DNA of 64,000 nucleotides from Candidatus Doudnabacteria bacterium RIFCSPHIGHO2_02_FULL_42_25 (GTDB lineage Bacteria > Patescibacteriota > Doudnabacteria > UBA920 > O2-02-FULL-48-8). The position numbers and the translations under genes were made by a program. Under the pieces are notes generated by a model that saw nothing but the letters and a program-made list of their open reading frames with translations, ran no database searches and had not been told where the DNA came from. The DNA is taken from the NCBI GenBank assembly GCA_001777665.1, contig MFEQ01000006.1, forward strand, positions 24,309 to 88,308. Reading direction: 5' to 3'. The first letter of the stretch is position 1, and each line of letters begins with the position of its first letter. Positions 11,889 to 63,546 of this stretch are shown in pieces.

Positions 11889-11909
11889 AGGGTTATTATA
11901 GCTTAACTC

Positions 11910-11938
11910 TTGACAAAATAGCCAAAAAGGAGTACAGT
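11910..11938 (+). promoter_or_regulatory. Sigma70-like promoter of GC-rich island 1 (TTGACA-17-TACAGT)
   Basis: TTGACA at 11910-11915, 17-nt spacer, TACAGT at 11933-11938. Followed by AAGGAGG at 11950-11956. Confidence 0.55.
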
Positions 11939-11965
11939 AATTTGTTCTTAAGGAGGAATAGCGCG

Positions 11966-12169
11966 ATGACCAAGAACCATCGAGACGGCGAAAAGTTCGG
12001 GGGTAATCACACTACCCTTCTAGATTTGGCCGTGACGATGGTAGACATCGCGGCCAAGTACTCTGAAGTAAAAACTATTAGTCCGGGCATGCTTCAGGTA
12101 AACCCCAACAAATCCGGCGGATCCCAGCGTGTGAAATTCGCTTGGATGAAGGGGGGGGGCTTCTTATGA
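11966..12169 (+). CDS. GC-rich island 1, ORF1 (67 aa, MTKNHRDGEKFGGNHTTLLDL...), unknown function
   Basis: ATG 8 nt after AAGGAGG. GC-rich codon usage unlike the host. Stop overlaps the next ATG (ttATGA). Confidence 0.5.
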   Translation: MTKNHRDGEKFGGNHTTLLDLAVTMVDIAAKYSEVKTISPGMLQVNPNKSGGSQRVKFAWMKGGGFL

Positions 12170-12312
12170 CCGTTCGGCAAAACCGATCGGTCCAGGAAGT
12201 TCGAGTCTACACGTCGGACACTCAGACGACCATGGTCGCGCTAGCAAGAGCCGCTCGAGACCGAGATATTCCCATCGGGTTTCTGAAGAAGGATAAGACG
12301 CAAACCTACTAG
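12166..12312 (+). CDS. GC-rich island 1, ORF2 (48 aa, MTVRQNRSVQEVRVYTSDTQTTMVALARAARDRDIPIGFLKKDKTQTY), translationally coupled
   Basis: ATGA start/stop overlap with ORF1. Not in ORF track (<60 aa). Confidence 0.45.
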   Translation: MTVRQNRSVQEVRVYTSDTQTTMVALARAARDRDIPIGFLKKDKTQTY

Positions 12313-12329
12313 GCTTGGAGGATACGCAG

Positions 12330-12791
12330 ATGGCAGTCAACGCAATGGGAGCCTCGGCGGTTGCCGAGTTGCTGGGTGACCTGACAGATCGGACGAAGTA
12401 CACTGAGGGGGTCCTGAAAGGGATGCTCGGTGTCATCCGAAACGAAGAGCTGCATCACACGACGATCATCGGCAAGATCGGAATCGTGCCGCTGTCGCTT
12501 GAGCAGCTCAACAAGCTCAAGTACGTGGACGAGGCCAACCAGAAGACGGCATTCGGTTCTGACATCGCCACGGCCATCCGGGCTGAAATGACGCGACGGA
12601 CGAGCATCAAGATCGAATTCGAGTCCCTCTTCCGGACGCTCTACGCCGGCGCAGAGTACGGACCCGAGAAAGTGATGGACGCAATCCAGCGTTACGAGGA
12701 GGCCATGCGCTCGAGCTCGACCTCGTTCGCTCCTCCCCCGCCGGTTCCAACGACGGATAGCAACGACGGCTTCGCGGCACGGACGCACTAA
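12330..12791 (+). CDS. GC-rich island 1, ORF3 (153 aa, MAVNAMGASAVAELLGDL...APPPPVPTTDSNDGFAARTH), unknown function
   Basis: GGAGGA at 12317-12322 precedes ATG 12330. ORF track offers TTG 12315. Pro-rich C-terminal tail. Confidence 0.5.
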   Translation: MAVNAMGASAVAELLGDLTDRTKYTEGVLKGMLGVIRNEELHHTTIIGKIGIVPLSLEQLNKLKYVDEANQKTAFGSDIATAIRAEMTRRTSIKIEFESLFRTLYAGAEYGPEKVMDAIQRYEEAMRSSSTSFAPPPPVPTTDSNDGFAARTH

Positions 12792-12814
12792 TCACCCGCG
12801 TCGTCAGGACGCAC

Positions 12815-12856
12815 AAACGGCGAGCCCAACACTGGGCCCGCCGTTTTTCTTTTGTT
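12815..12856 (+). terminator. Intrinsic terminator of island 1
   Basis: aaacggcgagcccaacactgggcccgccgtttttctttt. Confidence 0.65.
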
Positions 12857-12877
12857 CTATTATCTGTGACACCTGTC

Positions 12878-12909
12878 TTACCTAGTTGCCCATATGGGCA
12901 ACTAGGTAA
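12878..12909. repeat. Perfect 32-bp palindrome ttACCTAGTTGCCCATATGGGCAACTAGGTaa (CATATG-core palindrome family, copy 1)
   Basis: Identical 28-bp core at 49787-49814 and 63554-63581. Variants at 43124-43157 and 62962-62989. Confidence 0.9.
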
Positions 12910-12925
12910 TCTCTTTTTTTACTTG

Positions 12926-12957
12926 CCTCTAATTTCAGCGATCGCTGAAATTAGAGG
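12926..12957. repeat. Perfect 32-bp palindrome cctctaatttcaGCGATCGCtgaaattagagg, immediately 3' of the dnaX stop
   Basis: Self-complementary. Same GCGATCGC core as the palindrome at 43164-43195 and the direct repeats at 56335/57514. Confidence 0.85.
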
Positions 12958-12959
12958 AA

Positions 12960-14444
12960 CTAGTTCTCTACTTCCCCGCCCATAATTTTGAGGGCGGACT
13001 CCACTAACTCATCTTTTTGCTCCACTTGAGCCTCACCTTTTTGTAACGTAGGTTTTACCATCAGTTTCAGTCCCGTCACTTCTTCGATTACTTGATCGAC
13101 AACGATTCGATTCTTACGCGCTTCGATCGCATCTTTATGAAATTTATATGGAAATATCACTACCAGTTCTTTTCCTTCTATAGAAATAGGCTGAGCTAGT
13201 TTTAAACTCGAGATAAGCGAGTGGTTATATTCTTTTAGTTTTTCCAGAATCTGCGGCCAGTGAGCTTGGACTTTGGCAAATAACTCCCCCTCGCCCTCTC
13301 TTACATTAAGAGGGGGTTCCTCTGCTGCTTCATCCCCCCTTAATATAAGGGGGGATTGAGGGGGGTTATTCTCCTCGGTCGCCTCTACTGCGGCTAATTC
13401 AAGTGGCAGACTCTGGATCGATGACCATTTGATTTCACCTTCAGCTTTCTGGAATATCTGAATGATCTGCATAATTCTTGGCAATTCCAAAGCTTGGGCT
13501 TGATCCTTCATCTTCTGTGAAATTTCTTCGGTATAACCAAAATCAGAAGTTGTCCCCACTTTCGTCAACAATATTTTTCGCAAATACTCTAAAAAATCTT
13601 TTTCAAATTGATATAAATCTTTGCCCCCATAAGTCAGATCTGAAATAAAACTCACCGCTTCTTGGGTTTGATTTTCTACGAGCAGATCTAGGAATTTACT
13701 CAAAGTCTTCACGCCTGTTAAACCGAGGACTGTTTCGACTAATTCTTCAGTAATCTCGCCTTCGGCGTAATTCATAACTTGATCGAGTAGTGATAGCCCA
13801 TCTCGAAAACTGCCATCCGCAGCAGTCGCGATTTCCATCAGGGCTCCTTCACTAACTTTGATCTGATTATCGGAAGCCACATATGCGAGATGCTTGCTTA
13901 AATCTGCAATGCCGACTTTTTTAAAATCAAATCGTTGCGTCCGCGAAATAATCGTGGCTGGAACTTTATGAATTTCGGTCGTGGCCAAAATAAATACGGC
14001 ATGACTCGGTGGTTCTTCCAAAGTCTTAAGTAATGCATTAAAAGCGCCTTTTGAAAGCATGTGCACTTCATCGACAATAATCACTTTATATGTGGCCTTA
14101 GTTGGGGCAAATTGCAAATGATCGATCAATTCTCGAATATTATCCACGCCAGTGTGCGACGCCGCATCTATTTCCAGCAAATCTAAACTGGTATTCTCTA
14201 GAAATGGTTTACAGATCTCGCATTCGTTGCAGGGTTCCGAGCCTGTTCTATTCTGACAATTAATAGCCCGCGCAAAAATCCGAGCTAGCGTCGTTTTCCC
14301 GACCCCTCTGGGTCCGGTGAATAAATAAGCGTGGCCCACGCGATTATTGGCGACCGCATTGGCGAGCGTGGTTTTGATGTGTTCCTGATTGACCACGGAA
14401 CCGAAATTCAGTGGCCGATATTTTCTATACAATACTAAGTTCAT
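12960..14444 (-). CDS. dnaX: DNA polymerase III subunit gamma/tau
   Basis: Walker A GPRGVGKTT, clamp-loader motifs. Contains an in-frame GC-rich insertion (about 13290-13375) encoding EENNPPQSPLILRGDEAAEEPPLNVREGEGE. Confidence 0.85.
   Translation of the reverse strand: MNLVLYRKYRPLNFGSVVNQEHIKTTLANAVANNRVGHAYLFTGPRGVGKTTLARIFARAINCQNRTGSEPCNECEICKPFLENTSLDLLEIDAASHTGVDNIRELIDHLQFAPTKATYKVIIVDEVHMLSKGAFNALLKTLEEPPSHAVFILATTEIHKVPATIISRTQRFDFKKVGIADLSKHLAYVASDNQIKVSEGALMEIATAADGSFRDGLSLLDQVMNYAEGEITEELVETVLGLTGVKTLSKFLDLLVENQTQEAVSFISDLTYGGKDLYQFEKDFLEYLRKILLTKVGTTSDFGYTEEISQKMKDQAQALELPRIMQIIQIFQKAEGEIKWSSIQSLPLELAAVEATEENNPPQSPLILRGDEAAEEPPLNVREGEGELFAKVQAHWPQILEKLKEYNHSLISSLKLAQPISIEGKELVVIFPYKFHKDAIEARKNRIVVDQVIEEVTGLKLMVKPTLQKGEAQVEQKDELVESALKIMGGEVEN
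13334..13374. repeat. Copy of the ccccttaatataagggg-ggttag-gaggggttat element embedded in-frame in dnaX
   Basis: ccccccttaatataaggggggattgaggggggttattctcc. Compare 60616-60669 and 21040-21085 (reverse orientation). Confidence 0.65.
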
Positions 14445-14582
14445 AAGATTTCTACGAAAGTACGAATTCTCGAATTACGAACTGTTCGTAGTTTCGTAAG
14501 TTCGTATTTCGTAGATAGTTTACCACAAATCAAAAAAGAACTAAATCAGTTCTTCTGTTTACTTCTTACTGTTTACTAATTA

Positions 14583-14930
14583 CTACTTTTTAAACACGAA
14601 TAATTTATACCCAGTGAAATTCCAGACCAGACTAACACCTGTGGCGATAACTTTGGCCCCGAATAGCCATGGTCGGGCCTCCACTCCAAACATTGGATCC
14701 ACAAACGTCGTGATCGCAACTACTACTCCAGTATTAATTGCGACTCCGATAATACTCACGAATAAAAACATGCTCGCTTTCCTACCTTCGTGAGCATGGC
14801 TATGATCATGGAAGGCCCAATTCTTGTTCAAAAAATAACTGTTCGTCGTCGCGATAGTGAACGAAACAACATTCAACGGAATCAAGTCAGCACCACCTGT
14901 GATGCCTGTGACTTTAGAAAGAATAAACAA
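14583..14930 (-). CDS. gtrA: GtrA-family membrane protein (bactoprenol-sugar translocase-like)
   Basis: Four hydrophobic segments, 115 aa from TTG. In-frame upstream extension encodes KRTVAQFSRFFVVGLINTGIDYIV, a typical GtrA N-terminus, but has no ATG/GTG/TTG, so the true start is probably near 15005 via a non-canonical codon or a frameshift. Confidence 0.5.
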   Translation of the reverse strand: MFILSKVTGITGGADLIPLNVVSFTIATTNSYFLNKNWAFHDHSHAHEGRKASMFLFVSIIGVAINTGVVVAITTFVDPMFGVEARPWLFGAKVIATGVSLVWNFTGYKLFVFKK

Positions 14931-15047
14931 AACGATGTAATCGATTCCAGTATTGATTAACCCAACAACAAAAAACCGTGAGAATTGCGCTACGGTTCTT
15001 TTAATTTCAGCTTTCGGTATTTGTGCCTCTGTACTTATTACTTTTTA

Positions 15048-15067
15048 CCTGCCTGCCGGCAGGCAGG
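15048..15067. repeat. Perfect 20-bp GC palindrome cctgcctgccggcaggcagg flanked by attactttttac direct repeats
   Basis: Self-complementary. Degenerate relative cctgcggttgagcaggcagg at about 48790-48809, likewise just 3' of a minus-strand gene. Confidence 0.6.
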
Positions 15068-15085
15068 CTTATTACTAATTACTTT

Positions 15086-16537: not shown

Positions 16538-16638
16538 TTTAACCATTTCGAGGGCCGGTCAATTGACCGGTTAGCGAGAAATCGATTTTCCGAGAGTGAC
16601 TCCTCTTAGGAGGGATCTCTCACTTCGTTCGAGATGGG
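16538..16638 (+). repeat. Structured repeat family ccatttcga...GGAGGGATCTCTCACTTCGTTCGAGATGG, copy A
   Basis: Shares aaccatttcga, an internal GC hairpin (ggccggtcaattgaccgg), gagaaatcg and a 29-nt 3' block with copies at 19844-19919 and 27001-27082. 5' ccatttcga pairs with 3' tcgagatgg (one G-U pair). Confidence 0.7.
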
Positions 16639-19843: not shown

Positions 19844-19919
19844 TAACCATTTCGACCCCGGACTTGATCCGGGGGAGAAATCGCTCTTGGGAGGGATCTC
19901 TCTCTTCGTTCGAGATGGG
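19844..19919 (+). repeat. ccatttcga...GGAGGGATCTCTCTCTTCGTTCGAGATGG element, copy B
   Basis: ttttaaccatttcga + hairpin ccccggacttgatccgggg + gagaaatcg + gggagggatctctctcttcgttcgagatggg. Confidence 0.7.
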
Positions 19920-19967: not shown

Positions 19968-21017
19968 TTAATTCGCGAATTTAAAAGTCGAAAGCAATTT
20001 ATTTGCATCAATTAATGCGCCCTCTCCACCATTATAAACATCTAAGTTAATCTCATTATCTTCTCCCCAACTTGATGGGTAATTCGTTAGTTGAATTGAA
20101 ATGGTCTCTATGAGCTGGTTCGGGCACTTAATCATTCGCGGGCATTCGTAGCGCTTTGCTGAAAATCCTGCAAATTTAGTTTCTTCGATAGGAACATTCG
20201 CTCCTATGTCGAAAACACTTTCTCTTCCAATATTTTCTGCGGCAATTTCAAATTCTACGTACACGGTACCATTTTCTTCGTTAGCCAAGTAAGCACTCGT
20301 TCTGTCGCCAACTGATCTTACCTGCCAATATTCATTGGGAAAAATAAATTCATACCCATATTTATAACTAATAAACTTTTTATAAAAACCTGTAGTAACT
20401 ATCGAGTACTCATTAATCTTAATAGTCGAAAGGACTGGCAGTATAATTTTAGGGTTACCAGAAAATGTCAAAACATTTTCACCAGATTTAATTTCATAAT
20501 TTCCTGTTTCATGTCCACCTTGACCTCCCGAATAATAAGTAAATTCATAACCGTTTATTGCCTCTTTGTTTACACTTTGTGGGTCAGCCGTATTTAAATA
20601 TGATTCCCAACTAAACCAAAGGTCTATATCTCCCTCGAACAGAGGATTTTCCATCTTTTGTTTAGTCTCGGCTGAAATAAAACCTACTGCGTGAGGATCA
20701 AGATAAATTTCCCAGTCATTGGGATATTTAAACTCAAATCCATATTCGGTATTCGTATAAGTTTTCCAATCTGACGGAACGTCAGATTGCTCCGACCGAA
20801 GCGTCGGAGCAATCTGAGTGATCGCTGCTTCCTTCTTTAACTCATACCACCAATCGACAGAGCCAATCACCACGACAAAAAGCAGGACCCCGATAGTGGT
20901 CCAGAGAACTTTCGTTGTAAATAGTTTTAGTATTTCGTCGAGTTTGTTTTTATTTTCCATTGTGTTTATTTCAATTTTATTCTCCCCCTCGAGGGGGAGA
21001 CAGAACCAAGAATTCAA
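19968..21017 (-). CDS. Membrane-anchored hypothetical protein, paralog 2 (349 aa from ORF-track TTG; an internal ATG near 20961 is an alternative start)
   Basis: Same signal-anchor + APTLRSEQSDVPSDWKTYTNTEYGFEFKYP module as paralog 1. 5' region contains palindrome tctccccctcgagggggaga. Confidence 0.45.
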   Translation of the reverse strand: MNSWFCLPLEGENKIEINTMENKNKLDEILKLFTTKVLWTTIGVLLFVVVIGSVDWWYELKKEAAITQIAPTLRSEQSDVPSDWKTYTNTEYGFEFKYPNDWEIYLDPHAVGFISAETKQKMENPLFEGDIDLWFSWESYLNTADPQSVNKEAINGYEFTYYSGGQGGHETGNYEIKSGENVLTFSGNPKIILPVLSTIKINEYSIVTTGFYKKFISYKYGYEFIFPNEYWQVRSVGDRTSAYLANEENGTVYVEFEIAAENIGRESVFDIGANVPIEETKFAGFSAKRYECPRMIKCPNQLIETISIQLTNYPSSWGEDNEINLDVYNGGEGALIDANKLLSTFKFAN

Positions 21018-21656: not shown

Positions 21657-22589
21657 ATGAGCCTGAAAATAATTCATACCAAAAATTTACGTTGGATCGA
21701 CATCGTCGGACCTGAAGACAGCGATCTCACCTATCTCAAAGAACACTTCAAATTTCACCCGCTTGATTTTGAAGATATCATCACGCCATCGATCCGGACA
21801 AAAATCGACGAATATCCGGCCTACCATTTCATCGTTTTGCTTTTTCCATACTATAGTAAAGAAAACAATGAAATCCGTTCAGTGGAGGTTGATTTTTTGA
21901 TCGGTCCGGATTATGTGATCACTATTCACAATGGCAAAATGAAAACTCTGAACAACCTGGTACACAACGCGCAGCAGTACGACCAGACCCGGAATGCGAT
22001 GATGATGCAAGGATCAGGATTTTTGCTGTTTACTATTTTGGAAGCATTGTTCAAAAGAAGCTCTCCGATTCTGGACCACATCAATCGAGAAGTCCTAAGT
22101 GCCGAGAAAAATGTGTTCCAACTTGACATCAAAACTTTGGAAAAATTATCTGAACTTAAAAAAAACATCATCATCTACCGCCGTATCGTAAAAATGCACC
22201 GTTATGTTTTAAACAAAATTCTGCACTCTTCAAATGACTATCTGAAATTCAAAGACCACAAAACTTATTTTCAGGATTTGATCGAATACGGAGAAAACAT
22301 TTGGAACGTGCTGTCTTCTGACAAAGAAAGTGTGGAGAGCTTCGAAGAAACCAACCAATCTCTAGGCACGCATCGTATCAATGATATTTTGCAAGTCTTA
22401 ACAGTCCTCTCTGTTGTTTTAGCAGCACTAAATTTGATTACAAATATTTTGGTATTTATGGAACGAACCAACATCGAAGAAAACTACGGTCTGTCGAACG
22501 ATTTATACTTAATCAGCTTCATCACTGGCTTCATGTTTGTTGTTACCATAACCATGCTTTATTACTTCCGTAAACGCCGCTGGTTGTAA
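21657..22589 (+). CDS. corA: CorA-family Mg2+/Co2+ transporter
   Basis: Two C-terminal TM helices; typical CorA N-terminal WIDI..P motif. Start moved to ATG 21657 (MSLKIIHT). Confidence 0.65.
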   Translation: MSLKIIHTKNLRWIDIVGPEDSDLTYLKEHFKFHPLDFEDIITPSIRTKIDEYPAYHFIVLLFPYYSKENNEIRSVEVDFLIGPDYVITIHNGKMKTLNNLVHNAQQYDQTRNAMMMQGSGFLLFTILEALFKRSSPILDHINREVLSAEKNVFQLDIKTLEKLSELKKNIIIYRRIVKMHRYVLNKILHSSNDYLKFKDHKTYFQDLIEYGENIWNVLSSDKESVESFEETNQSLGTHRINDILQVLTVLSVVLAALNLITNILVFMERTNIEENYGLSNDLYLISFITGFMFVVTITMLYYFRKRRWL

Positions 22590-22600
22590 AATTAGTTATT

Positions 22601-22628
22601 TGCTACCATACTTGGTAGTATGGTAGCA
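22601..22628. promoter_or_regulatory. Palindromic operator-like site TGCTACCATACT-tggt-AGTATGGTAGCA upstream of the TrpR-like gene
   Basis: Perfect 12-bp inverted arms, 4-bp spacer, about 29 nt upstream of ATG 22657. Second degenerate copy at 23186-23213 upstream of cysS. Confidence 0.5.
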
Positions 22629-22656
22629 TTTTGCTCAAGTATTAAAAGCTAAACAA

Positions 22657-23175
22657 ATGTCAAAGTTTCCACGAGTTTTAACTAAAAAAGAACAAGAAGA
22701 ACTCTTTATAGAATTTGCGCAAGCCCTCGCGAGTTTGCATTCGGCTGTAGAAATGGCAAATTTTATCAAAGATCTATTATCGGAACCAGAAACAATGATG
22801 TTGGCACGAAGATTGCAAATAGCAAAATTGCTCTATAAAGGTTTGAATTACCGAGAGATAAAAGAAGAGTTGAAGGTCAGTTTCGGCACAATTGCTAGAG
22901 TTCAGACTTGGATGCAAATATACGGGGAGGGCTATCGGACAGTTCTTGAACGAGTCAGCCGAAAAAAATATGACCCTACAAAAGATGTCTCTGACTGGAA
23001 AAAGGTTAAGCGCCGATATCCTTTATACTTTTGGCCGGAATTACTATTAGATGAGATAATAAAATCATCGAATAAAAAACAAAAGCAAAAACTTTTGGCT
23101 GTATTGGCAAAGCAAAAAGAAAAAACCGGTTTAAGTAAAGAGTTGGAACATATTCTCAAAAGCGCTCAACTCTAA
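22657..23175 (+). CDS. TrpR-like YerC/YecD-family HTH protein
   Basis: LSEPETMMLARRLQIAKLL..GLNYREIKEELKVSFGTIARV matches TrpR/YerC HTH. Confidence 0.5.
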   Translation: MSKFPRVLTKKEQEELFIEFAQALASLHSAVEMANFIKDLLSEPETMMLARRLQIAKLLYKGLNYREIKEELKVSFGTIARVQTWMQIYGEGYRTVLERVSRKKYDPTKDVSDWKKVKRRYPLYFWPELLLDEIIKSSNKKQKQKLLAVLAKQKEKTGLSKELEHILKSAQL

Positions 23176-23185
23176 TTTAGCAATT

Positions 23186-23213
23186 TGCTACCATACTTGG
23201 TAGTATGAGAGCA
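23186..23213. promoter_or_regulatory. Second (degenerate) copy of the TGCTACCATACT palindrome, upstream of cysS
   Basis: tgctaccatacttggtagtatgagagca; two mismatches in the right arm. Confidence 0.4.
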
Positions 23214-23269
23214 TTTAGCTAGTTCATCGAATTAATTAAAATTTATTTAAAATTTGTTATAATAGAGCA

Positions 23270-24664
23270 ATGTTGAAGCTATTTAATTCCCTAACACGAA
23301 AAATTGAAGAATTTAAGCCCATAACCGACAAAGCAGTCGGTCTTTATACTTGTGGTCCCACAGTTTATAACTATGCGCATGTAGGCAATCTTCGGACATA
23401 TCTGTTTGAAGACTTCTTGAGACGCGCTTTGGAATATAATGGTTACACAGTTAAACACGTAATGAATATTACTGACGTTGGACACTTAACCGGCGATCAA
23501 GACTTTGGGGAAGATAAGATGGAAAAAGAAGGTGGGTCAGTGGAGGAGATTCTAAACTTGGCAAAAAAATATACGGATGCCTTTCTGGCTGATCTCAAAA
23601 CGCTGAATATCTTGCAAGCTGAAACACTGGCTCCAGCAACTGAATATATCCCGCAACAAATTAAATTAATTGAAAAACTTTTTCAAAAAGAAATCGCTTA
23701 CGAGACTGAATTGGCTATTTATTTTGACGTTTCAAAATTTGAAAATTACGGACAACTCACTGGTCAAAAAATGGAAGATAAAAAAGTTGGGGCCAGATCA
23801 GATGTTGTAGTAGATAAAAATAAAAAACACCCTGCGGATTTTGCACTCTGGTTTAAACTAGCTGGGAAGTACAAAAATCATCTTTTACGATGGGATTCGC
23901 CGTGGGGGCAAGGCTTTCCTGGCTGGCATATAGAATGTTCTGCTATTTCTGAACATTTTTTGGGACAACCTTTTGATATTCATACTGGGGGCATCGACCA
24001 TCTTTTTCCACATCACACAAATGAGATAGCTCAAAGCGAAGGAGCTAACGATAAGCCCTTAGCTAATTATTGGCTCCATGGTGAGCACCTTTTGATCCGT
24101 GAAGGTAGAATGGGAAAATCTGAAGGTAATATCTTAACTTTGTCAGCTTTGGTAGACAAAGGCTTTAACCCTCTCGCCTATCGATATTTAGTTTTGACCT
24201 CTCATTATCGCAGTAAATTAAATTTTACTGAAGAAAGTCTGACTGGCGCCCAACATGCGTTAAATAATCTTTACCAAGAGATTTCTAATTACGACGAACC
24301 CAAAGTTGGTTGCGCCCAGTTTGAAGAAGATTTTTTAAATGCTGTTAATAATGATCTGGATACGCCGAAAGCCCTGGCAATTATGTGGGATCTTATCAAA
24401 ACTGACGAGTTCCCAACCTCGGCGAAAGCTCAAACCTTGTTTAAATTTGATGAGATTTTAGGTCTGAAAATGAAAGCAGTCTGGGAAGCAGCCAAAGTCA
24501 TACCCGATGTGGTCCACAAATTAATCGACGAGCGTGAAGTAGCGCGCAAATCAAAAGATTTCGTCCGCTCCGATGAATTACGCCGAGCCATCGAATCCAA
24601 TGGTTACATCGTCGAGGATACTCTCGATGGCTTTCGAGTCAAGAAAAAATTTGACAAAAATTGA
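23270..24664 (+). CDS. cysS: Cysteine--tRNA ligase
   Basis: Class I HIGH-type (HVGN) and KMSKS-type (RMGKS) motifs; CysS-like zinc ligands. Confidence 0.85.
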   Translation: MLKLFNSLTRKIEEFKPITDKAVGLYTCGPTVYNYAHVGNLRTYLFEDFLRRALEYNGYTVKHVMNITDVGHLTGDQDFGEDKMEKEGGSVEEILNLAKKYTDAFLADLKTLNILQAETLAPATEYIPQQIKLIEKLFQKEIAYETELAIYFDVSKFENYGQLTGQKMEDKKVGARSDVVVDKNKKHPADFALWFKLAGKYKNHLLRWDSPWGQGFPGWHIECSAISEHFLGQPFDIHTGGIDHLFPHHTNEIAQSEGANDKPLANYWLHGEHLLIREGRMGKSEGNILTLSALVDKGFNPLAYRYLVLTSHYRSKLNFTEESLTGAQHALNNLYQEISNYDEPKVGCAQFEEDFLNAVNNDLDTPKALAIMWDLIKTDEFPTSAKAQTLFKFDEILGLKMKAVWEAAKVIPDVVHKLIDEREVARKSKDFVRSDELRRAIESNGYIVEDTLDGFRVKKKFDKN

Positions 24665-26401: not shown

Positions 26402-26508
26402 CGCTCGGAATAAAATTTTTATGCACCGGCCATAAAATTCTGCTGAATTTTTGGCCTACGCGCTCGGTCCGTCGACCTGCGCGAGTTGCTAAAAATTTAT
26501 TCCTCGCT
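26402..26508 (+). ncRNA. Candidate structured RNA (about 105 nt), copy 1 of a two-copy family with compensatory changes
   Basis: Conserved core accggccRtaaaattctgctgaattttYggcctacgcgctcggtccgtcgacctgcgcgagtt. Closing stems differ between copies but are each self-complementary. A/G and T/C substitutions maintain a base pair in the ggccRtaaaattc hairpin. Confidence 0.45.
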
Positions 26509-27000: not shown

Positions 27001-27082
27001 TACCACTTCGAACGATTAGTGAGAAGTCGCTCCTACAAGGGTTAGCGCTTGGAGGAGGGATCTCTCACTTCGTTCGAGATGG
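27001..27082 (+). repeat. ccacttcga...GGAGGAGGGATCTCTCACTTCGTTCGAGATGG element, copy C
   Basis: Shares 5' accaYttcga, gagaaRtcg and the 29-nt 3' block with copies A and B. Confidence 0.65.
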
Positions 27083-27139
27083 TAAAACGCTTTCGCTGGG
27101 ATGGTAAAAAAAGTCATGATTTAGTAGAATATGTAGGCT

Positions 27140-27765: not shown

Positions 27766-27808
27766 AAAAAGGAGGCCACCGCGAGCATGCTCGCGGTGGC
27801 CTTTTTGC
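27766..27808. terminator. Bidirectional terminator (aaaaaggaggccaccgcgagcatgctcgcggtggccttttt)
   Basis: Perfect 14-bp GC stem flanked by A-run and T-run. Confidence 0.75.
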
Positions 27809-27864: not shown

Positions 27865-28077
27865 CTATCCGTGAATACGTCTCAGGAGCTGGTGCCGGCT
27901 CTCTGCAGTAGCGAGTTGGTTCGAAGCGAACCGACGCGCCTGTTGAACCAACTCCTTCATCGCAGGATCCTGGCTTTCCAGGATGACCTGGGGATCGAGC
28001 TTCCTTTCACGGATGTAAGTTTCAAACTGCTGCTGCTCGAACTCTTCGAGTGGCAGGATGTGGCGGGATTCAGGCAC
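27865..28077 (-). CDS. GC-rich small ORF (70 aa, MPESRHILPLEEFEQQQFETYIRERKLDPQ...), unknown; sits where rpmA would be expected downstream of rplU
   Basis: GTG start 7 nt after AAGGAGG on the minus strand. GC-rich island about 27860-28120. Confidence 0.4.
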   Translation of the reverse strand: MPESRHILPLEEFEQQQFETYIRERKLDPQVILESQDPAMKELVQQARRFASNQLATAESRHQLLRRIHG

Positions 28078-28159
28078 GGGGCTACCTCCTTGGGGAAGCG
28101 GTCGGCGAACTTAACAGCCAAAAGCAAATCACAAAAAGCTTGTGACCTAGTTTCGGATT

Positions 28160-42707: not shown

Positions 42708-42736
42708 TTGACAAATTGCCAAGAAGAATGTATTAT
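42708..42736 (+). promoter_or_regulatory. Sigma70-like promoter of GC island (TTGACA-17-TATTAT)
   Basis: TTGACA 42708-42713, TATTAT 42731-42736, GGAGG 42760-42764, ATG 42771. Confidence 0.55.
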
Positions 42737-42770
42737 ATTGTGTTCTACTGCTGAAAATTGGAGGATTTTC

Positions 42771-43031
42771 ATGAGACGAAAAGGAAAAAACCACATCTGT
42801 GAAGACCACAGTTCGTGGTTGAGTATGCGGAACACGGGGGTCTGTCACGTCGAGTTACGTGGATCCAGGGCCTACCTCAGCGTGGCCTACTACAACGGCA
42901 CGACGTGGCTGCCTAAATTGGTCAGAATCCACTTCTGCCCTTTCTGCGCTAAACCTCTGGGGAAGAGGAAGGTGCGCAAGCTCCGCAAGACAGGGACGAA
43001 GTCGCTTCACTCCCGCCCCCTCTCGAAGTAG
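42771..43031 (+). CDS. GC-rich small ORF (86 aa), putative zinc-ribbon protein (HICEDH...CPFC)
   Basis: ORF with SD. Cys/His pairs; basic C-terminal tail KRKVRKLRKTGTK. Confidence 0.45.
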   Translation: MRRKGKNHICEDHSSWLSMRNTGVCHVELRGSRAYLSVAYYNGTTWLPKLVRIHFCPFCAKPLGKRKVRKLRKTGTKSLHSRPLSK

Positions 43032-43050
43032 TATCCACTCTACTTCGCTG

Positions 43051-43092
43051 CCGAAATCGCGTTGGGCGCCAGCTCGACGCGATTTTTCTTTT
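43051..43092 (+). terminator. Intrinsic terminator of the 42771 island
   Basis: gaaatcgcg...cgcgatttttctttt. Confidence 0.6.
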
Positions 43093-43123
43093 AAGCTTCA
43101 CAATTTTAACTTGCCGCGGTCAT

Positions 43124-43157
43124 GTACCTATTTGCCCCATATGGGACAAATAGGTAC
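43124..43157. repeat. 34-bp near-perfect palindrome gtacctatttgccccATATGggacaaataggtac (variant of CATATG-core family)
   Basis: One mismatch. Same architecture: ACCTA..TTGCCC-CATATG-GGGCAA..TAGGT. Confidence 0.8.
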
Positions 43158-43163
43158 CCCTGC

Positions 43164-43195
43164 AACATAAAAGGTGCGATCGCACCTTTTATGTT
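43164..43195. repeat. Perfect 32-bp palindrome aacataaaaggtGCGATCGCaccttttatgtt
   Basis: Self-complementary. Paired with the preceding palindrome exactly as at 12878/12926. Confidence 0.85.
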
Positions 43196-56370: not shown

Positions 56371-56960
56371 ATTCTTTTTACAGCTTCAATGAACATTTTG
56401 TTAGTATCGTCAGATACAATTATGAGCCCTCGCACTATTCTTCTGTATGCAGGATCATCGGATTGGCCTCTTCCTCTCGTTATATGATCGAAGCCTCCTA
56501 CTGCAGTCACTAAAATCCAAGGATTGTGCTCTTCCACATCAGGTAATTCATGCCGGTGCTCATTGAAATCCCGACGGTATTCATCTAACCGTAACTGCAG
56601 TAATTTATCCCAATCGATCAAGAATTTCTCCTCAATCCCGAAAGATTTTAAAATTTCTTTGTATGCAGTGAGAATTCCATTTTTTACTTCTTTCAAATAC
56701 TCCCTAAAAAAATCTTCGTGAAAATTAATCAGTGTTTCAGTTTGAAAATAGACTAAACAGAGCGCCGTGACTACTAATTCATTAAAGATCCGATCTTGTT
56801 CAGTTTGGGATAACGAGTCAAAATTAATTTCGCTTCTAAAATCTATATTTCGAAATAAGTCAAAAGCTGACTTTATTGCCTTCATAGTAATGGCCACAGT
56901 ATCTTTTGCCGAATTTGGAGGACCGTAAACAAGTTTTCTGAACATAAAATAGAGTCTCAC
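56367..56960 (-). CDS. Hypothetical protein (197 aa) with possible HEPN-like Rx4H motif (RRDFNEH)
   Basis: ORF. The motif call is weak pattern-matching only. Confidence 0.3.
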   Translation of the reverse strand: MRLYFMFRKLVYGPPNSAKDTVAITMKAIKSAFDLFRNIDFRSEINFDSLSQTEQDRIFNELVVTALCLVYFQTETLINFHEDFFREYLKEVKNGILTAYKEILKSFGIEEKFLIDWDKLLQLRLDEYRRDFNEHRHELPDVEEHNPWILVTAVGGFDHITRGRGQSDDPAYRRIVRGLIIVSDDTNKMFIEAVKRI

Positions 56961-56965
56961 TACGC

Positions 56966-57514
56966 CTAATTGTGCGATCGTGTATTTTGCGTAGAATCAA
57001 ACAGCATTCTGCCTTCTAGGATATTAACATTTAATTCTACTTGTAATTCTTTTAATAGCTCTTTAAATTCTGGTAGTAGCTCCCAAGGTCCGATAAAAAC
57101 ACTCTTTTGCAACATCATAAAGCCGTTTTGAATTAAAAATCGTCTTAAAAATTGTCTGGCTTTTTTCTTTTCTTCGGGGATATCAAACATAACTAGAGTT
57201 GAAAATCCGTTATTCTTTGCCCTTCTCAACTTTCTTGAGTATATATATTTCAAACTCCTTGCCCGCCCTAAATTCGTTATCTGATAGTATGTTTTTCTTT
57301 CTTTTTTGATTTTTTTTACTAAGCCATCTCTGTCTAGTTCCCAAAAAGCTCTGGAAATTTTATAGCGATCATAATATTTAAGCCTTTTGATATATTGATA
57401 CTTGCCTTCAAAAGGATAAGGAATCAGCTCCCCCATATCGCGCAAAAACCAAAGCAATTCTCCAGTAATTGTCTTTAGACGCTTCTTGATTTTTCTTTTG
57501 GTAGTACGTTTCAT
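56966..57514 (-). CDS. wHTH + Cas2-like (VapD/Cas2 fold) protein, paralog A
   Basis: C-terminal half LVMFDIPEEKKKARQFLRRFLIQNGFMMLQKSVFIGPWE matches the Cas2 signature (V.YD.s....R..l...L...G.r.Q.SVF). Basic N-terminal domain. Paralog at 62995-63546. Confidence 0.4.
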   Translation of the reverse strand: MKRTTKRKIKKRLKTITGELLWFLRDMGELIPYPFEGKYQYIKRLKYYDRYKISRAFWELDRDGLVKKIKKERKTYYQITNLGRARSLKYIYSRKLRRAKNNGFSTLVMFDIPEEKKKARQFLRRFLIQNGFMMLQKSVFIGPWELLPEFKELLKELQVELNVNILEGRMLFDSTQNTRSHN

Positions 57515-57549
57515 ACGTATTTTACGCGATCGCGCATTTTACGTATTAT
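57514..57549 (+). repeat. 36-bp direct repeat (right copy) tacgtattttacGCGATCGCgcattttacgtattat
   Basis: See 56335-56370. Confidence 0.8.
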
Positions 57550-57556
57550 AGCAAAT

Positions 57557-60609: not shown

Positions 60610-60615
60610 ACTTTC

Positions 60616-60669
60616 GCAGTTGTTCCTCCCCTTAATATAAGGGGAGGTTAGGAGGGGTTATTCATAAGG
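60616..60669 (+). repeat. gcagttgttcctccccttaatataaggggaggttaggaggggttattc element in the 5' leader of the BNR-repeat gene
   Basis: See 21040-21085 and 13334-13374. Confidence 0.75.
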
Positions 60670-60683
60670 ATTAGGCTGCTGTT

Positions 60684-61451
60684 TCAAGTCTTAAGCATTA
60701 AATTAGTCAAAAGCAACTTCGAATTGACGTTCTGGTCCAAAAATTTTCGAGCCAACATTACTTGGCTAACTTTTTTCGCCAAAGCTTTAGAGGCTTGGGT
60801 CTGCAAATTCTGTTGTAATTGATTTAGCCATAAATCAAAAATCTTTTTTATTTCCTCTGTTTCAAAACCAGCCATATCATAAGCAGAAATCAACCGATCC
60901 ACTTTTGAATTACTCATAAAAATTTTATAGAGACGATCTGCTTCGAGAGTTTCATCAGTAACTTCGGGTATTCTTTCAATCGGGCCAAATGTAATTTTCT
61001 GACAACGAGACAAAATAGTCTTTGGCAACTTATTCGGATTGCTTGTGATCAAGAATAAAAAAGTATAACTTTTGGGTTCTTCGAGAACTTTCAAAAGCGC
61101 GTTCGCCGCTTCAGTGGTCATCTGGTCAGCATGATCGATCAGTGCCACTTTGTGTTTGGCTTGGTAAGGCTTCAGTGACAATTTGTACGCCAACTCTCGA
61201 ATTTGTTCAATTTTTATTCCTTCAGCGCCATTTATCTCTAATAGATCTGGATGGAAATAGTCGGGCGAAAGTTTGGGTAGATCGCTGAATGAAGATGCCT
61301 CGATTAACTCCAGGGCTAATTTTTTCGCGACAGTTTTTTTCCCTACACCTTCAGGTCCAGCAAACACATAAGCATGAGCTAGTTTGCCATTCCGTAGAGC
61401 TTTTTCCAGTAATTCTAATTGTCTTTTGTGTCCTGAAATTGATTCAAACAT
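60684..61451 (-). CDS. holB: DNA polymerase III delta-prime subunit
   Basis: AAA+ clamp-loader fold with degenerate Walker A GPEGVGKKT. Confidence 0.6.
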   Translation of the reverse strand: MFESISGHKRQLELLEKALRNGKLAHAYVFAGPEGVGKKTVAKKLALELIEASSFSDLPKLSPDYFHPDLLEINGAEGIKIEQIRELAYKLSLKPYQAKHKVALIDHADQMTTEAANALLKVLEEPKSYTFLFLITSNPNKLPKTILSRCQKITFGPIERIPEVTDETLEADRLYKIFMSNSKVDRLISAYDMAGFETEEIKKIFDLWLNQLQQNLQTQASKALAKKVSQVMLARKFLDQNVNSKLLLTNLMLKT

Positions 61452-61479
61452 GGATTAATTATACCATTTCACCCCAGTA

Positions 61480-61509
61480 TTGACAAAAACACCCAAAAAA
61501 CAGTATACT
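61480..61509 (+). promoter_or_regulatory. Sigma70-like promoter (TTGACA-18-TATACT) of GC island; followed by SD + 6-codon uORF (MQPLRS, 61545-61565) and an 11-bp-stem hairpin (61580-61631)
   Basis: TTGACA 61480-61485, TATACT 61504-61509, AAGGAGG 61533-61539, inverted repeat gcagaagagtg/cactcttctgc. Confidence 0.5.
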
Positions 61510-61650
61510 TATACGTTGCACATTTCGTGCACAAGGAGGATAAGATGCAACCTTTACGTAGTTAGATTTTGAACTCACTGCAGAAGAGTGCTTATAACTT
61601 CAGATAATCCTGTCTGATCCACTCTTCTGCTAACAGCAGAGGAGAGGGTC

Positions 61651-62265
61651 ATGATCAGGAACATCGCAGACGCGTCAGAACAGTACCACAACGCCGTCAA
61701 CGCCTGCCGCGAGGTCTTCGCGGCGGCCGAGCGCGAATTCGTAGAGCCGAAGGGCGTGAAAGCCCACATCGAGGAAGCGCGGCGGCTCTACGCGGAACTG
61801 GGTGACGAGGCGTCAGCCGTGAAAGAGGTGGACAATGCAAGGCAGTGGCTGATCGGGATCGCCGGGAAGTTCTTGCGCGGTGCGGTCGAGTTCTTCGGCG
61901 ACCGCATCTACGAGCTCTCCTACATGTCGCTCGACCGCGACATCGTCGAGAACATGCAGGCTAGGTTGCGCGAGTACGAGGAAGCAGTGCGCGTCGGCGA
62001 AGCCAGCAGCTTCGAGGTACGACTCACCGCATACAAAAAACTCGCGACCGTGGTCAACGGCGCGCGCACGGAGCAGCAGCGGCGCATCGAGCACCGCGAG
62101 AAGCTGGCGCAGGAACGCGCTGAACGGGAGCAACACGAACGTCGGCGGCGTCGGGAGGAAGAAGCCGAGGCCGATCGCGTTCGAGCGAAGCAGCAACAGG
62201 AGGCTGCTGAGGCTGCGGCGCGCGAGGAACGCGCGAAGCAGTTCGACGAGCTCTTCGGAGCTTAG
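61651..62265 (+). CDS. GC-rich island ORF (204 aa) with highly charged C-terminal helix (ERAEREQHERRRRREEEAEADRVRAKQQQEAAE)
   Basis: ATG 6 nt after GAGAGGG. GC-rich. Confidence 0.5.
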   Translation: MIRNIADASEQYHNAVNACREVFAAAEREFVEPKGVKAHIEEARRLYAELGDEASAVKEVDNARQWLIGIAGKFLRGAVEFFGDRIYELSYMSLDRDIVENMQARLREYEEAVRVGEASSFEVRLTAYKKLATVVNGARTEQQRRIEHREKLAQERAEREQHERRRRREEEAEADRVRAKQQQEAAEAAAREERAKQFDELFGA

Positions 62266-62267
62266 GG

Positions 62268-62308
62268 GGTCCCTAGGGGTGTGGCACACAGGTGCCCGCC
62301 CCTTTTTC
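62268..62308 (+). terminator. Intrinsic terminator
   Basis: GC hairpin ...ggcacacaggtgcccgcccctttttc. Confidence 0.55.
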
Positions 62309-62323
62309 ATTTCCAGGTTAGGG

Positions 62324-62352
62324 TTGACAGTGGCCTCAAAATCTTATATACT
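62324..62352 (+). promoter_or_regulatory. Sigma70-like promoter (TTGACA-17-TATACT) with about 170-nt structured leader
   Basis: TTGACA 62324-62329, TATACT 62347-62352. Leader hairpins gcggcaacttcgccgc and ccgctcgcgg. AGGAGG 62514-62519. Confidence 0.5.
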
Positions 62353-62525
62353 GTTAAGCTTTAAACGGAGAAAGTTTCGTTAGCCCTGTCTGCTAAGCGA
62401 AACGGGAAAAGCAACTCAAAAAGAGCGAACGCAAGATCATATCAAACAAGTAACTCTAATTGAATGCAGCTTCGCGGCAACTTCGCCGCAAGTTTACCCG
62501 TCCGCTCGCGGACAGGAGGTCAACC

Positions 62526-62888
62526 ATGCCTGACCCACAGGACATGGACCCCACGGTCGCTCAGTTCGCTGAGGACCTGAAGTACACCCAGTGCCACGCT
62601 GAGGTTCACTACCTCAGTGTGGATGGGACGCCCCGGATGCTACGGTTCCACCCGTGGACATCCGTACTTGTCGAAGTCTCTGAGGACTGCCTAAAGGTGG
62701 TCGAGAGATTCGATAAGCGCCCCGGGGAAACCTGGAGCGAGAAGACGACGGTGATCGAGCTGAATAAGCTCTTGATCGCCAAACTCTTCGACTGCGAGGG
62801 ATGTGAACGATGCGACGACAAAGGGTCGGGCGCATTGTGGACATTCTTGCAGGGGCAACGTTCTAGGAGTACTTGGGGGTACTGTTAG
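62526..62888 (+). CDS. GC-rich island ORF (120 aa, MPDPQDMDPTVAQFAEDL...CEGCERCDD), unknown; C-terminal Cys cluster
   Basis: ATG 6 nt after AGGAGG. ORF track gives upstream ATG 62460, which lacks an SD. Confidence 0.5.
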   Translation: MPDPQDMDPTVAQFAEDLKYTQCHAEVHYLSVDGTPRMLRFHPWTSVLVEVSEDCLKVVERFDKRPGETWSEKTTVIELNKLLIAKLFDCEGCERCDDKGSGALWTFLQGQRSRSTWGYC

Positions 62889-62896
62889 AATAAACA

Positions 62897-62932
62897 CCCG
62901 GGCGACACGCAGTGTCCCCGGGTTTTTCTTTT
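62897..62932 (+). terminator. Intrinsic terminator (cccgggcgacacgcagtgtccccggg + T-run)
   Basis: Near-perfect stem with 1-nt bulge, then tttttctttt. Confidence 0.7.
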
Positions 62933-62961
62933 CCCCAATTCCTTACACATACCAACCTTTT

Positions 62962-62989
62962 TACCTAGTTGGCCATATGGGCATTTAGG
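62962..62989. repeat. Degenerate copy of the CATATG-core palindrome (acctagttgGccatatgggcaTTtaggt)
   Basis: Three substitutions relative to the perfect copies. Lies between the GC island and the Cas2-like gene. Confidence 0.7.
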
Positions 62990-62994
62990 TAAAG

Positions 62995-63546
62995 TCAGCC
63001 AAGTTTAAATCTTTTTATTAAATCGGCTTTTATATCTATTTCTTCAGCAGTTATTAATCGTACAAAAGGCCTTATCTCATAGATCTCTTTTAAAAAATCA
63101 ACTTCATCCTCACAAGGATAAGGACATGCCCAAAGACTTTTCTGGACGAGCTCAAAACCAATCTCCCCCAACTTCCTAGTAAACTCTTTTCGGTTATTAT
63201 TAAATTCGACTGGTATATCGTACGTTACTAATCGCCATTTTCTATCCCATTTTTTCTGTGGTTTAATTTTCATATCGTCAATTTTAAATTTCAACCATTT
63301 CTCCTTCCCTTTTTTCGTTAATTTAATAACGGTTTTATCTCCTTCCTGACCTATACTGACCATCCTTGAATTTTCTAAACCCTTAAAAGATCGATCTATT
63401 TGAGTCTTGCTATATTTCTTATATAAATCATACTGACGAAAAATTTCTGCCATACCTGGTGCCACTATGACCACTGCTAAAATCCCGACCTTGGACAGGA
63501 CGTATAAAATATCTTTAGCAATTTCCGAGCGTTTAGCCATACACAA
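62995..63546 (-). CDS. wHTH + Cas2-like protein, paralog B; bracketed by CATATG-core palindromes
   Basis: WRLVTYDIPVEFNNNRKEFTRKLGEIGFELVQKSLWACP matches the same signature as 56966-57514. Confidence 0.4.
   Translation of the reverse strand: MCMAKRSEIAKDILYVLSKVGILAVVIVAPGMAEIFRQYDLYKKYSKTQIDRSFKGLENSRMVSIGQEGDKTVIKLTKKGKEKWLKFKIDDMKIKPQKKWDRKWRLVTYDIPVEFNNNRKEFTRKLGEIGFELVQKSLWACPYPCEDEVDFLKEIYEIRPFVRLITAEEIDIKADLIKRFKLG

Follow-up and report, generated by a model that had tools for sequence, protein, structure and literature searches.

Several systems are known in which small genes carry expression signals or flanking sites that set them apart from their surroundings. Phage morons, as described by Hendrix and colleagues, are said to be autonomous promoter-gene-terminator units of atypical composition lying between prophage genes. 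Integron cassettes, in which a small open reading frame (ORF) is followed by a palindrome, are usually promoterless. In translation of the Bacteroidota type, most messenger RNAs (mRNAs) have no Shine-Dalgarno (SD) sequence and the few SD-led genes are specially regulated. Here we analysed a stretch of 64,000 nucleotides (nt), referred to as the window, of Candidatus Doudnabacteria bacterium RIFCSPHIGHO2_02_FULL_42_25 (contig MFEQ01000006.1, positions 24,309 to 88,308). It belongs to the Patescibacteria (Candidate Phyla Radiation, CPR), a large group of bacteria that depend on hosts and are for the most part uncultured. A preliminary description of the window had pointed out seven GC-rich islands in AT-rich host DNA, each carrying small ORFs with their own signals, and had taken them for a network of recently acquired, mobilisable cassettes. 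The observation turned out to be largely correct; the network is not supported for the units tested. As far as the sequence can be read, the islands form a class of small genes that are expressed autonomously and depend on an SD, and across AT-rich Patescibacteria their coding sequences have stayed GC-rich. The explanation we prefer, and to which we give about an even chance, is that they are resident, lineage-restricted small-protein genes whose deviant composition is maintained and is not the mark of a recent donor.

Composition and inheritance of the GC-rich units

Sliding-window GC peaked at every site named in the preliminary description, and comparison with 60 host genes confirmed that the islands are sharply set off from the AT-rich host. 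Host genes have a GC content of 0.403 ± 0.029 (maximum 0.450) and a GC content at third codon positions (GC3) of 0.384 ± 0.048 (maximum 0.485), versus 0.51–0.64 and 0.55–0.80, respectively, for the nine ORFs of the seven islands. With GC z-scores of 3.8–8.2 against host genes, GC and codon usage of the islands are clearly not those of the host. The enrichment hits all codon classes as well as first and second positions. In two-fold NNY codons the fraction of C is 0.62–0.94 in islands versus 0.28 in host genes, in NNR codons the fraction of G is 0.42–0.79 versus 0.27, and G+C at four-fold sites is 0.49–0.78 versus 0.44. Among amino acids, glycine, alanine, arginine and proline (GARP) account for 28.7% in islands and 21.7% in the host, and phenylalanine, tyrosine, methionine, isoleucine, asparagine and lysine (FYMINK) for 19.5% and 31.1%. 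Promoters and 5′ leaders of the islands have a host-like GC of 0.32–0.46, against the 0.51–0.64 of the coding sequences, so that the GC-richness starts at the coding sequence. In the sliding-window profile, the ends of neighbouring host genes are not enriched.

The preliminary description had interpreted this contrast as recent horizontal acquisition. Syntenic relatives, found for island 6 and weakly for island 7, speak against it. A scan of GTDB representative genomes with histidyl-tRNA synthetase (HisRS) gave one locus with extensive synteny (L051), from a Patescibacteria metagenome-assembled genome having 13 genes in common with the window; a metagenome scan added an identical locus (L087) and a third species (L086). 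The island 6 orthologue in L051/L087 is divergent from holB as in the window, has 57% amino-acid identity and, in L051, keeps the C-terminal KQFD(E/Q)LFG motif. Nine flanking host proteins are 60–91% identical to those of L051 in full-length alignment; the divergence of island 6 is thus about equal to that of its neighbours. Related genomes had been proposed as the place to look for the same junctions with and without cassettes. Of islands 4–7, which this comparison covered, island 7 has a weak homologue (30% identity, L051 4478–4795) after the island 6 orthologue, and islands 4 and 5 are absent from L051.

Between the window and L051, four-fold sites at conserved residues differ by 0.59–0.78 in host genes, about 0.75 being full saturation. 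In island 6 they differ by 0.52, versus 0.69 expected, with a composition of C 0.39, G 0.38, A 0.14 and T 0.09, and GC3 is 0.78–0.80 across the three species. In such a vertically inherited unit, the deviant composition persists after synonymous sites have largely turned over. Divergence of island 6 is highest at third codon positions (0.49, compared to 0.30 at first and 0.24 at second positions), with 43 synonymous and 85 non-synonymous codon changes; this third-position excess is what purifying selection on a protein is expected to produce.

In an exhaustive HMMER search covering 1.84 billion representative proteins, the island 6 protein had nine relatives besides the query's cluster, one of them a fragment of 69 amino acids (aa). 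Context was read for six relatives (L095, L096, L098, L099, L100 and L101) in addition to the orthologues. The hosts consist of AT-rich or mid-GC Patescibacteria-like DNA, and one family member is annotated as Minisyncoccia. In the contexts read, family members have a GC3 of 0.69–0.86, and flanking genes, where readable, of 0.24–0.57. All seven loci whose upstream region was read carry their own TTGAC-type promoter, a strong SD was found in the four loci scored (L051, L096, L100, L101), and the six relatives show an SD-led start and a GC-rich terminator. The member of L096 follows rpoC-dnaG-rpoD, of GC3 about 0.30 (rpoC 0.30), which indicates that high expression by itself gives no GC-rich codons. 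The AlphaFold2 model of the island 6 protein (predicted local distance difference test, pLDDT, 92.8) is a four-helix bundle with an 80-residue charged helix, for which Foldseek found nothing in the PDB with E below 0.09.

A second family is encoded by island 1. When fused by one additional G, ORFs 1a and 1b match DUF2103 (PF09876; 42.3 bits, cut-off 22.4, E = 7e-11). The gene is split by a G9 tract (12151–12159), the length of which is the same in NCBI and JGI assemblies; a +1 G would restore a 115-aa DUF2103 protein, 83% identical to intact homologues (112–114 aa, 72–83% identity). Phase variation or slippage at the tract is a possible explanation, as is a fixed pseudogene. Contigs of other Rifle samples break near it, at window positions 12311 and 12634. 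Relative to its host, DUF2103 is GC-rich in two of the three contexts read: in L089 it has a GC of 0.58 among genes of 0.34–0.41 and is preceded by a promoter (TTGACA, 17 nt, TATAAT) and an SD, and in L088 the promoter layout is as in the window. The DUF2103 domain is small and of alpha/beta type, and no structure matched it convincingly; the literature ties it to CRISPR and defence effectors, which we take as a lead only.

The island ORFs had been described as lacking recognisable homology. This holds for ORF 1c, for which a search of 5.8 billion protein clusters gave its own cluster and nothing else, and not for island 1 (DUF2103) and island 6 (a small family). In Pfam, PHROGs, NCBIfam and PADLOC searches with the island ORFs, DUF2103 was the only match; PHROGs gave nothing significant, and PDB sequence searches nothing meaningful. 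PADLOC returned no defence family for any island ORF, and the proposed defence or addiction (toxin-antitoxin) system gained no support.

Initiation signals and leaders

A near-consensus sigma-70 promoter had been attributed to each island. Six units indeed open with TTGACA, a spacer of 16–18 nt and a -10 box (at 11910, 42708, 49227, 55800, 61480 and 62324). Island 2, which follows rplU (identified by an L21 match in Pfam), lacks its own TTGACA promoter; the view of self-contained expression units thus stands for six of the seven. The orientation of six of the seven units on the plus strand was confirmed. Intrinsic terminators, read at unit ends as a GC-rich hairpin followed by a T-run, were also borne out, and a terminator scan, run on 44–64 kb, reported those at 49747 and 62900.

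Another difference between islands and host concerns the SD. As proposed, AAGGAGG-like sequences were found at proper spacing ahead of all eight island ORFs checked, seven of them having a strong 6-mer (AAGGAG, AGGAGG or similar). Among host genes, a 5-mer SD was found ahead of seven of 60, alternative starts being allowed, versus eight of eight island ORFs (Fisher p = 9e-7). Host genes had been said to show no canonical signals: this is right for the SD and wrong for promoters, since sigma-70-type promoters are present in the host, either of TTGACA type (+24651, -48835, -15757) or TG-extended TATAAT (-61486, -55689, -57573). In about one half of the host genes that lead operons, a -10 box stands 5–9 nt before the start codon, so that these genes look leaderless. 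Island promoters sit 45–202 nt upstream of start codons, leaving a real 5′ untranslated region (UTR); from -35 box to start codon there are 96 nt in island 5 and 202 nt in island 7. The SD dichotomy repeats in six other loci, where genes for EF-G, S7, S12, recA, ftsK and rpoD have no SD and GC-rich genes a strong one.

In several cases, an island promoter and a host promoter on the opposite strand have a back-to-back -35 (TTGTCAA/TTGACAA) in common. The -35 of island 3 is back-to-back with the lysS promoter and its upstream context is repeated at island 6, the -35 of which overlaps the one serving holB, a gene with a leaderless promoter on the opposite strand.

Some further observations concern individual promoters and genes. 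Examples of SD-poor or leaderless host genes are 9752–11233, 11394–11888, 23270–24664, 48837–49205 and 60684–61451. Two loci give the impression of duplicated promoter modules. L101 carries two adjacent GC-rich cassettes with near-identical promoters (GGCCCTTGACTTTAT...ATGCTATACTGTA; 150–260 and 900–1010). In L051 (5790–5850, minus strand), TTGACAAAATAG is duplicated in tandem within the island 6 promoter, which shares TTGACAAAATAGCC(A/G)AAA with the island 1 promoter of the window. Near hisS, other Patescibacteria loci from mid-GC genomes carry unrelated GC-rich ORFs of GC3 0.74–0.85 (L036 4053–4655, L079 12157–12699, L082 5912–6565), among them a CDP-alcohol-transferase-like gene, with membrane or secreted proteins as the other products; the arrangement of TTGACAAAT promoter and AGGAGG recurs in L036.

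The leader of island 6 is a 149-nt element (fold z = -5.1) in which the SD is paired. It contains a mini-ORF of six codons (61545–61565, MQPLRS*) with its own AAGGAGG. An SD-sequestering hairpin is predicted at about 61598–61650, where CUCUUCUGC pairs with the SD region GCAGAGGAG, and an upstream GCAGAAGAG is predicted to be able to compete for this pairing. The leader is near-invariant at the nucleotide level in L051, L087 and L086, each of which has the mini-ORF; the encoded peptides differ among species (MQPLRS, MQTQR, MRLLSR). The paired segments are invariant in the four sequences, so that there is zero covariation to count. The leader of island 7 is also structured (z = -2.3). Island coding sequences fold like dinucleotide shuffles (z = -0.8 and +0.6), and an evolved RNA structure within them was therefore rejected.

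These elements can be assembled into a possible mechanism. Six units are autonomous, each with a native sigma-70 promoter, a 5′ UTR, a strong SD, a GC-rich coding sequence and a GC-rich terminator. The bulk mRNAs, AT-rich and leaderless or SD-less, would follow a default initiation route for which GC-rich, structure-prone mRNAs would be poor substrates; GC-rich messages would then depend on their SD, and this dependence would open a separately controllable translation channel. In the leader of unit 6, where the SD is paired in the predicted fold, the alternative pairing would free it. It is conceivable, although we would rather bet against it, that the islands represent an orthogonal expression channel, that is, GC-rich, SD-obligate small genes, often with a riboregulated leader, kept off or switched on as a group. 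With the same reserve, GC-rich mRNAs might escape default initiation and perhaps AU-directed decay. If such a channel exists, it would be well suited to toxins, defence proteins or proteins of host interaction in episymbionts, and the compositional foreignness would be a selected regulatory property and not a transfer record.

Palindromes and other features of the window

The CATATG palindrome, said to follow most islands, was found after four of the seven; a fifth copy (63553) lies in the promoter of a gene of host composition. Palindrome A (28 nt, CATATG core) occurs four times versus zero expected, at 12878, 49786, 62962 (with three mismatches) and 63553 (Table 1). The last two bracket a gene (#1) for a PaaX/Cas2-like winged helix-turn-helix (wHTH) protein: palindrome A′ (62962–62992) lies 2 nt past the stop codon, and palindrome A (63553–63583) takes in both -35 (TTGCCC) and spacer of the gene's own leaderless promoter (-10 TAGAAT, 6 nt, ATG). 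In the same way, a second PaaX/Cas2-like unit (gene #2) is bracketed by palindrome B (TACGTATTTTAYGCGATCGCGCATTTTACGTA, GCGATCGC core) at 56335–56371 and 57514–57550, the upstream copy falling between the -10 TATAAT and the ATG of gene #2. The two paralogues are 31% identical, and both units are absent from the sister locus L051. Since the palindromes overlap the promoters of the PaaX-like genes, we infer that A and B are operators of two autoregulated PaaX/Cas2-like repressors. The orphan copies and the perfect palindromes at 12926, 43164, 27773 and 8077 may be hairpins, roadblocks or terminators between convergent units.

Two other readings of the palindromes were rejected. They are unlikely recombination sites, as they carry no attC core, have no recombinase near and overlap repressor promoters. 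A cyanobacterial HIP1 (highly iterated palindrome 1) origin of GCGATCGC does not fit, as this sequence has four copies only, all at palindrome centres. A separate palindrome family, TTGCTACCATACTTGGTAGTATGGTAGCA and variants (9707–9753, 22589–22635, 23174–23220), flanks a Trp-repressor-like gene (22657–23175), another small regulator bracketed by its own palindrome in the same pattern as the two PaaX-like genes.

Table 1. Coordinates of island ORFs, island units, palindromes and PaaX/Cas2-like genes in the window
Feature	Position	Strand	Remarks
ORF 1a	11966-12169	+	GC3 0.62
ORF 1b	12166-12312	+	GC3 0.63
ORF 1c	12330-12791	+	own SD; GC3 0.78
ORF 2	27865-28077	-	70 aa, GTG start at 28077; GC3 0.65
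ORF 3	42771-43031	+	86 aa; GC3 0.75
ORF 4	49272-49721	+	149 aa; GC3 0.55
ORF 5	55896-56210	+	104 aa, GTG start; GC3 0.60
ORF 6	61651-62265	+	204 aa, all-helical; GC3 0.78-0.80 in three species
ORF 7	62526-62888	+	120 aa, Cys-rich; GC3 0.73
Island 1 unit	11910-12860	+	-35 TTGACA at 11910, -10 TACAGT, SD AAGGAGG 11950-11956
Island 1 terminator	about 12818-12853	+	GC-rich hairpin
Island 2	27865-28092	-	SD AAGGAGG; directly downstream of rplU (L21, 28160-28504), same strand; no own TTGACA promoter
Island 2 end	27773-27802		bidirectional terminator palindrome
Island 3 unit	42708-43095	+	TTGACA, 17 nt, TATTAT; SD GGAGGA; terminator
Island 4 unit	49227-49775	+	TTGACA, 16 nt, TAGTAT; SD AAGGAGG; terminator 49747-49766
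Island 5 unit	55800-56330	+	TTGACA, 17 nt, AATAAT; SD AAGGAGG; terminator
Island 6 unit	61480-62310	+	TTGACA, 18 nt, TATACT; structured leader; terminator after ORF
Island 7 unit	62324-62930	+	TTGACA, 17 nt, TATACT; SD AGGAGG beside hairpin; terminator about 62897-62925
Palindrome A orphan	12878-12909		TACCTAGTTGCCCATATGGGCAACTAGGTA; between island 1 and convergent dnaX
GCGATCGC-core palindrome	12926-12957		after palindrome A orphan of island 1
Palindrome A variant	43124-43157		downstream of island 3
GCGATCGC-core palindrome	43164-43195		downstream of island 3
Palindrome A orphan	49786-49816		downstream of island 4
PaaX/Cas2-like wHTH gene #1	62995-63540/63546	-	181 aa; PaaX_M (PF20803) E = 9e-19
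PaaX/Cas2-like gene #2	56966-57514	-	PF20803 E = 4e-17
197-aa gene	56367-56960	-	same unit as PaaX gene #2 (unit 56335-57550)

Sequence features of the island proteins include a CPFC zinc-ribbon-like motif with a basic tail in island 3 and an N-terminal transmembrane or signal segment in island 4.

The window is natural Candidatus Doudnabacteria DNA from Rifle groundwater. DnaX (12960–14444, minus strand) is encoded identically in NCBI GCA_001780055.1, a JGI contig and ENA assemblies, all from the same groundwater site, and NCBI and JGI contigs have no mismatch to the window over the 13.5 kb compared. An engineered or synthetic construct, suspected from the textbook signals and from the NdeI (CATATG) and AsiSI (GCGATCGC) sites, was rejected because the identical sequence occurs in several environmental assemblies. 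The content is that of a core chromosome, with genes for the cell wall (FtsW, Mur ligase, MraY, Ddl, Alr, FtsQ, PBP2, MreB, MreC), for DnaB, DnaX, HolB, RecR, ribosomal protein L21, RRF, GreA and MetK, as well as for four aminoacyl-tRNA synthetases, an extracytoplasmic function (ECF) sigma factor and a coupling ATPase of type IV secretion system (T4SS) type. No integrase, transposase or recombinase turned up when the larger host ORFs of the window were scanned with Pfam. The sole transfer RNA (tRNA) gene of the window is tRNA-Gln (11263–11337), with a host gene between it and island 1. Rfam at the gathering threshold gave nothing besides tRNA-Gln over the whole window, and no match at E ≤ 1 on 55.6–63.1 kb.

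Cumulative GC skew drops almost monotonically along the window (1–64000). By this sign, the minus strand would be the leading one, and transcription of six of the seven units would then run head-on to replication. Family members in other genomes are co-oriented with their neighbours, so that a head-on orientation is no general feature.

Several repeats were observed in the window. A 155-nt repeat of 97% identity (2518–2672 and 52355–52509) corresponds to the same promoter region and 5′ end ahead of FtsW (1410–2525) and of a 176-aa gene (51832–52362) beside PBP2. The intergenic repeat CTCTTAGGAGGGATCTCTCACTTCGTTCGAGATGGG has three copies (16565–16638, 19884–19919, 27010–27083; 89–100% identity), two of them near the T4SS coupling protein, and gave no Rfam match. 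The motif CCCCTTAATATAAGGGG(A/G)G...GGGG is repeated at 13336–13371, within the dnaX reading frame, and at 60628–60663, and a similar motif lies upstream of 19968–21017. A three-way-junction element of about 105 nt is present in two copies of opposite orientation (55690–55795 and 26410–26500), with a fold z of -7.5 on the plus and -7.2 on the minus strand and no Rfam match. The two copies have the same inner hairpin, CGCGCAGGTCGACGGACCGAGCGCG; their outer stems are of different sequence and pair in each copy. Possible identities are a small RNA and a repeat resembling a miniature inverted-repeat transposable element (MITE).

Origin of the deviant composition and comparison with known systems

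The preferred explanation, resident genes of maintained composition, draws on two links. The GC-richness stays within the coding sequence and is conserved in families across AT-rich Patescibacteria, which points to maintenance, by selection or by GC-biased conversion. It is moreover kept in AT-rich hosts and was seen in no GC-rich genome, phage or plasmid, which makes it a property of the genes and not of a recent donor. The main competitor, which we consider unlikely, holds that the islands are horizontally acquired cassettes from a GC-rich pool, swapped at preferred intergenic slots, their 3′ palindromes being recombination or mobilisation sites. The strong compositional contrast, the ORFan status of 1c, the near-identical promoters of the two adjacent L101 cassettes, the identical 28–31-nt palindromes at several island 3′ ends and the absence of both palindrome-bracketed PaaX units from L051 would all fit with it. 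So would the variable content of the slots: at comparable positions, one upstream of (divergent from) hisS and one following the M10 peptidase gene, L051 carries other GC-rich small ORFs than the window, and the genes after DUF2103 differ between the window and L088. These differences, together with the lack of counterparts for islands 1c, 4 and 5, indicate that the class is partly accessory, and in this part the description of the islands as foreign, non-native genes keeps some ground; it loses it for island 6 and weakly for island 7, which are syntenic and co-diverged with their neighbours. Acquisition from a GC-rich pool also sits poorly with the end of GC-richness at coding-sequence boundaries, and no member of the island 6 family or of DUF2103 was found in a GC-rich context. 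Scans of IMG/VR with islands 1c, 4, 5, 6 and 7 gave no relatives, and neither GenBank phages nor PLSDB plasmids had a tblastn match to any of the island proteins. As for a mobilisation network, the Pfam scans gave no integrase or transposase in the window, and there were no target-site duplications, flanking direct repeats being within chance (random pairs of segments have an 8-mer in common in 38% of cases); the palindromes overlap repressor promoters and have no GTTRRRY core. This claim was not upheld.

The remaining explanations concern how composition could be raised in place. GC-biased gene conversion or recombination hot spots could raise the GC of the units without selection on function, and the enrichment of all codon classes and of first and second positions, as well as the turnover at slots, would be compatible with this; sharp boundaries at start codon and terminator, leaders that stay AT-rich and neighbouring gene ends without enrichment make it improbable, and a GC3 rise from 0.38 to 0.80 would be unusually large for bacteria. 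Ordinary translational selection, by which the islands would be the most highly expressed genes with optimal codons, might account for the strong promoters, SD sites and terminators and for the preference for C in NNY codons. We nevertheless judge it very improbable: the bias is a blanket one for G+C, including four-fold G and C and NNR codons, the amino-acid composition is shifted too, and highly expressed core genes stay low in GC: those for L21 and RRF are within the host range, MreB has a GC3 of 0.34 and rpoC of L096 one of 0.30. That the islands are structured noncoding RNAs (ncRNAs) or assembly chimeras with accidental ORFs is a reading to which we give hardly any credit. A GC-rich island in an AT-rich genome is a classic mark of ncRNA, and long antisense "shadow" ORFs are present; the divergence pattern of island 6 by codon position and its synonymous changes, the Pfam match, the SD at proper spacing before every ORF checked, the lack of an Rfam match even at E ≤ 1 and coding-sequence folding z values of about 0 contradict the former, and the identical sequence in independent assemblies the latter. 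Both are effectively refuted.

Some points weigh against resident genes of maintained composition and the SD-dependent channel attached to them. Islands 1c, 4 and 5, missing from the sister locus or without homologues, point to turnover, so that some transfer apparently occurs. In L092, whose host GC is about 0.5, DUF2103 is no outlier (GC 0.49, GC3 0.49), and GC-richness is thus not universal in this family. The four-fold sites of island 6 are incompletely saturated, and slow amelioration from a very GC-rich start is a possible fit to the window-L051 pair. Synteny comes from one sister lineage, within which the homology of island 7 is weak. The translation channel is itself deduced from sequence features, the host anti-SD (3′ end of 16S ribosomal RNA) lying outside the window, and any structural effect of the coding sequence would come from composition and not from an evolved fold. 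Lastly, the operator role of the palindromes is deduced from their position and leaves the orphan copies at island 3′ ends unexplained.

GC and codon deviation is a standard proxy for recent transfer; here it would mislabel vertically inherited genes. If the link between GC-richness and SD holds genome- and phylum-wide, it would represent an undescribed regulatory layer in Patescibacteria, would give a simple sequence rule for finding small lineage-specific proteins likely to matter for lifestyle, and would be a clean case for how strongly selection or biased conversion holds composition against mutation pressure. The searchable literature yielded no description of a GC-rich, SD-led class of small genes, which is weak evidence of novelty.

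Compared to known systems, the units resemble phage morons in being one- or two-gene units of odd composition, with their own promoter and terminator, between unrelated operons. Unlike morons, they are flanked by housekeeping chromosome (dnaX, rplU/recR, lysS, PBP2, hisS, holB) and have no phage relatives; at least unit 6 is vertically conserved between species, and the odd composition is maintained and not transient. With integron cassettes they share the succession of small ORF and palindrome and a variable ORF content at comparable positions. They differ from these in that six of seven have their own TTGACA promoter and that units are scattered over 50 kb and not arrayed; the window has no IntI or attI, and by direct reading the GTTGCCC of its palindromes fails the GTTRRRY of attC. 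The two bracketed genes resemble those of PaaX-family wHTH repressors, which have a Cas2-like middle domain: both proteins match PaaX_M, and a palindrome lies over the promoter of each gene, as is typical of autoregulation. In contrast to that family, the window proteins are short (about 181 aa), no phenylacetate genes are near, a second palindrome copy brackets each gene, and orphan copies stand at the 3′ ends of GC-rich units. The island 6 leader is similar to the ermC and cat leader-peptide attenuators in its upstream mini-ORF with its own SD and in a main SD that would be sequestered or freed; it departs from them by unconserved mini-ORF peptides and paired bases without covariation. Finally, as in SD-poor Bacteroidota, bulk genes have no SD, AT-rich unstructured starts appear to be the default and a small minority is SD-led. 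Aside from an anti-SD located, for this host, beyond the window, what separates the two is the nature of this minority, which in the window is made of GC-rich genes for lineage-specific small proteins.

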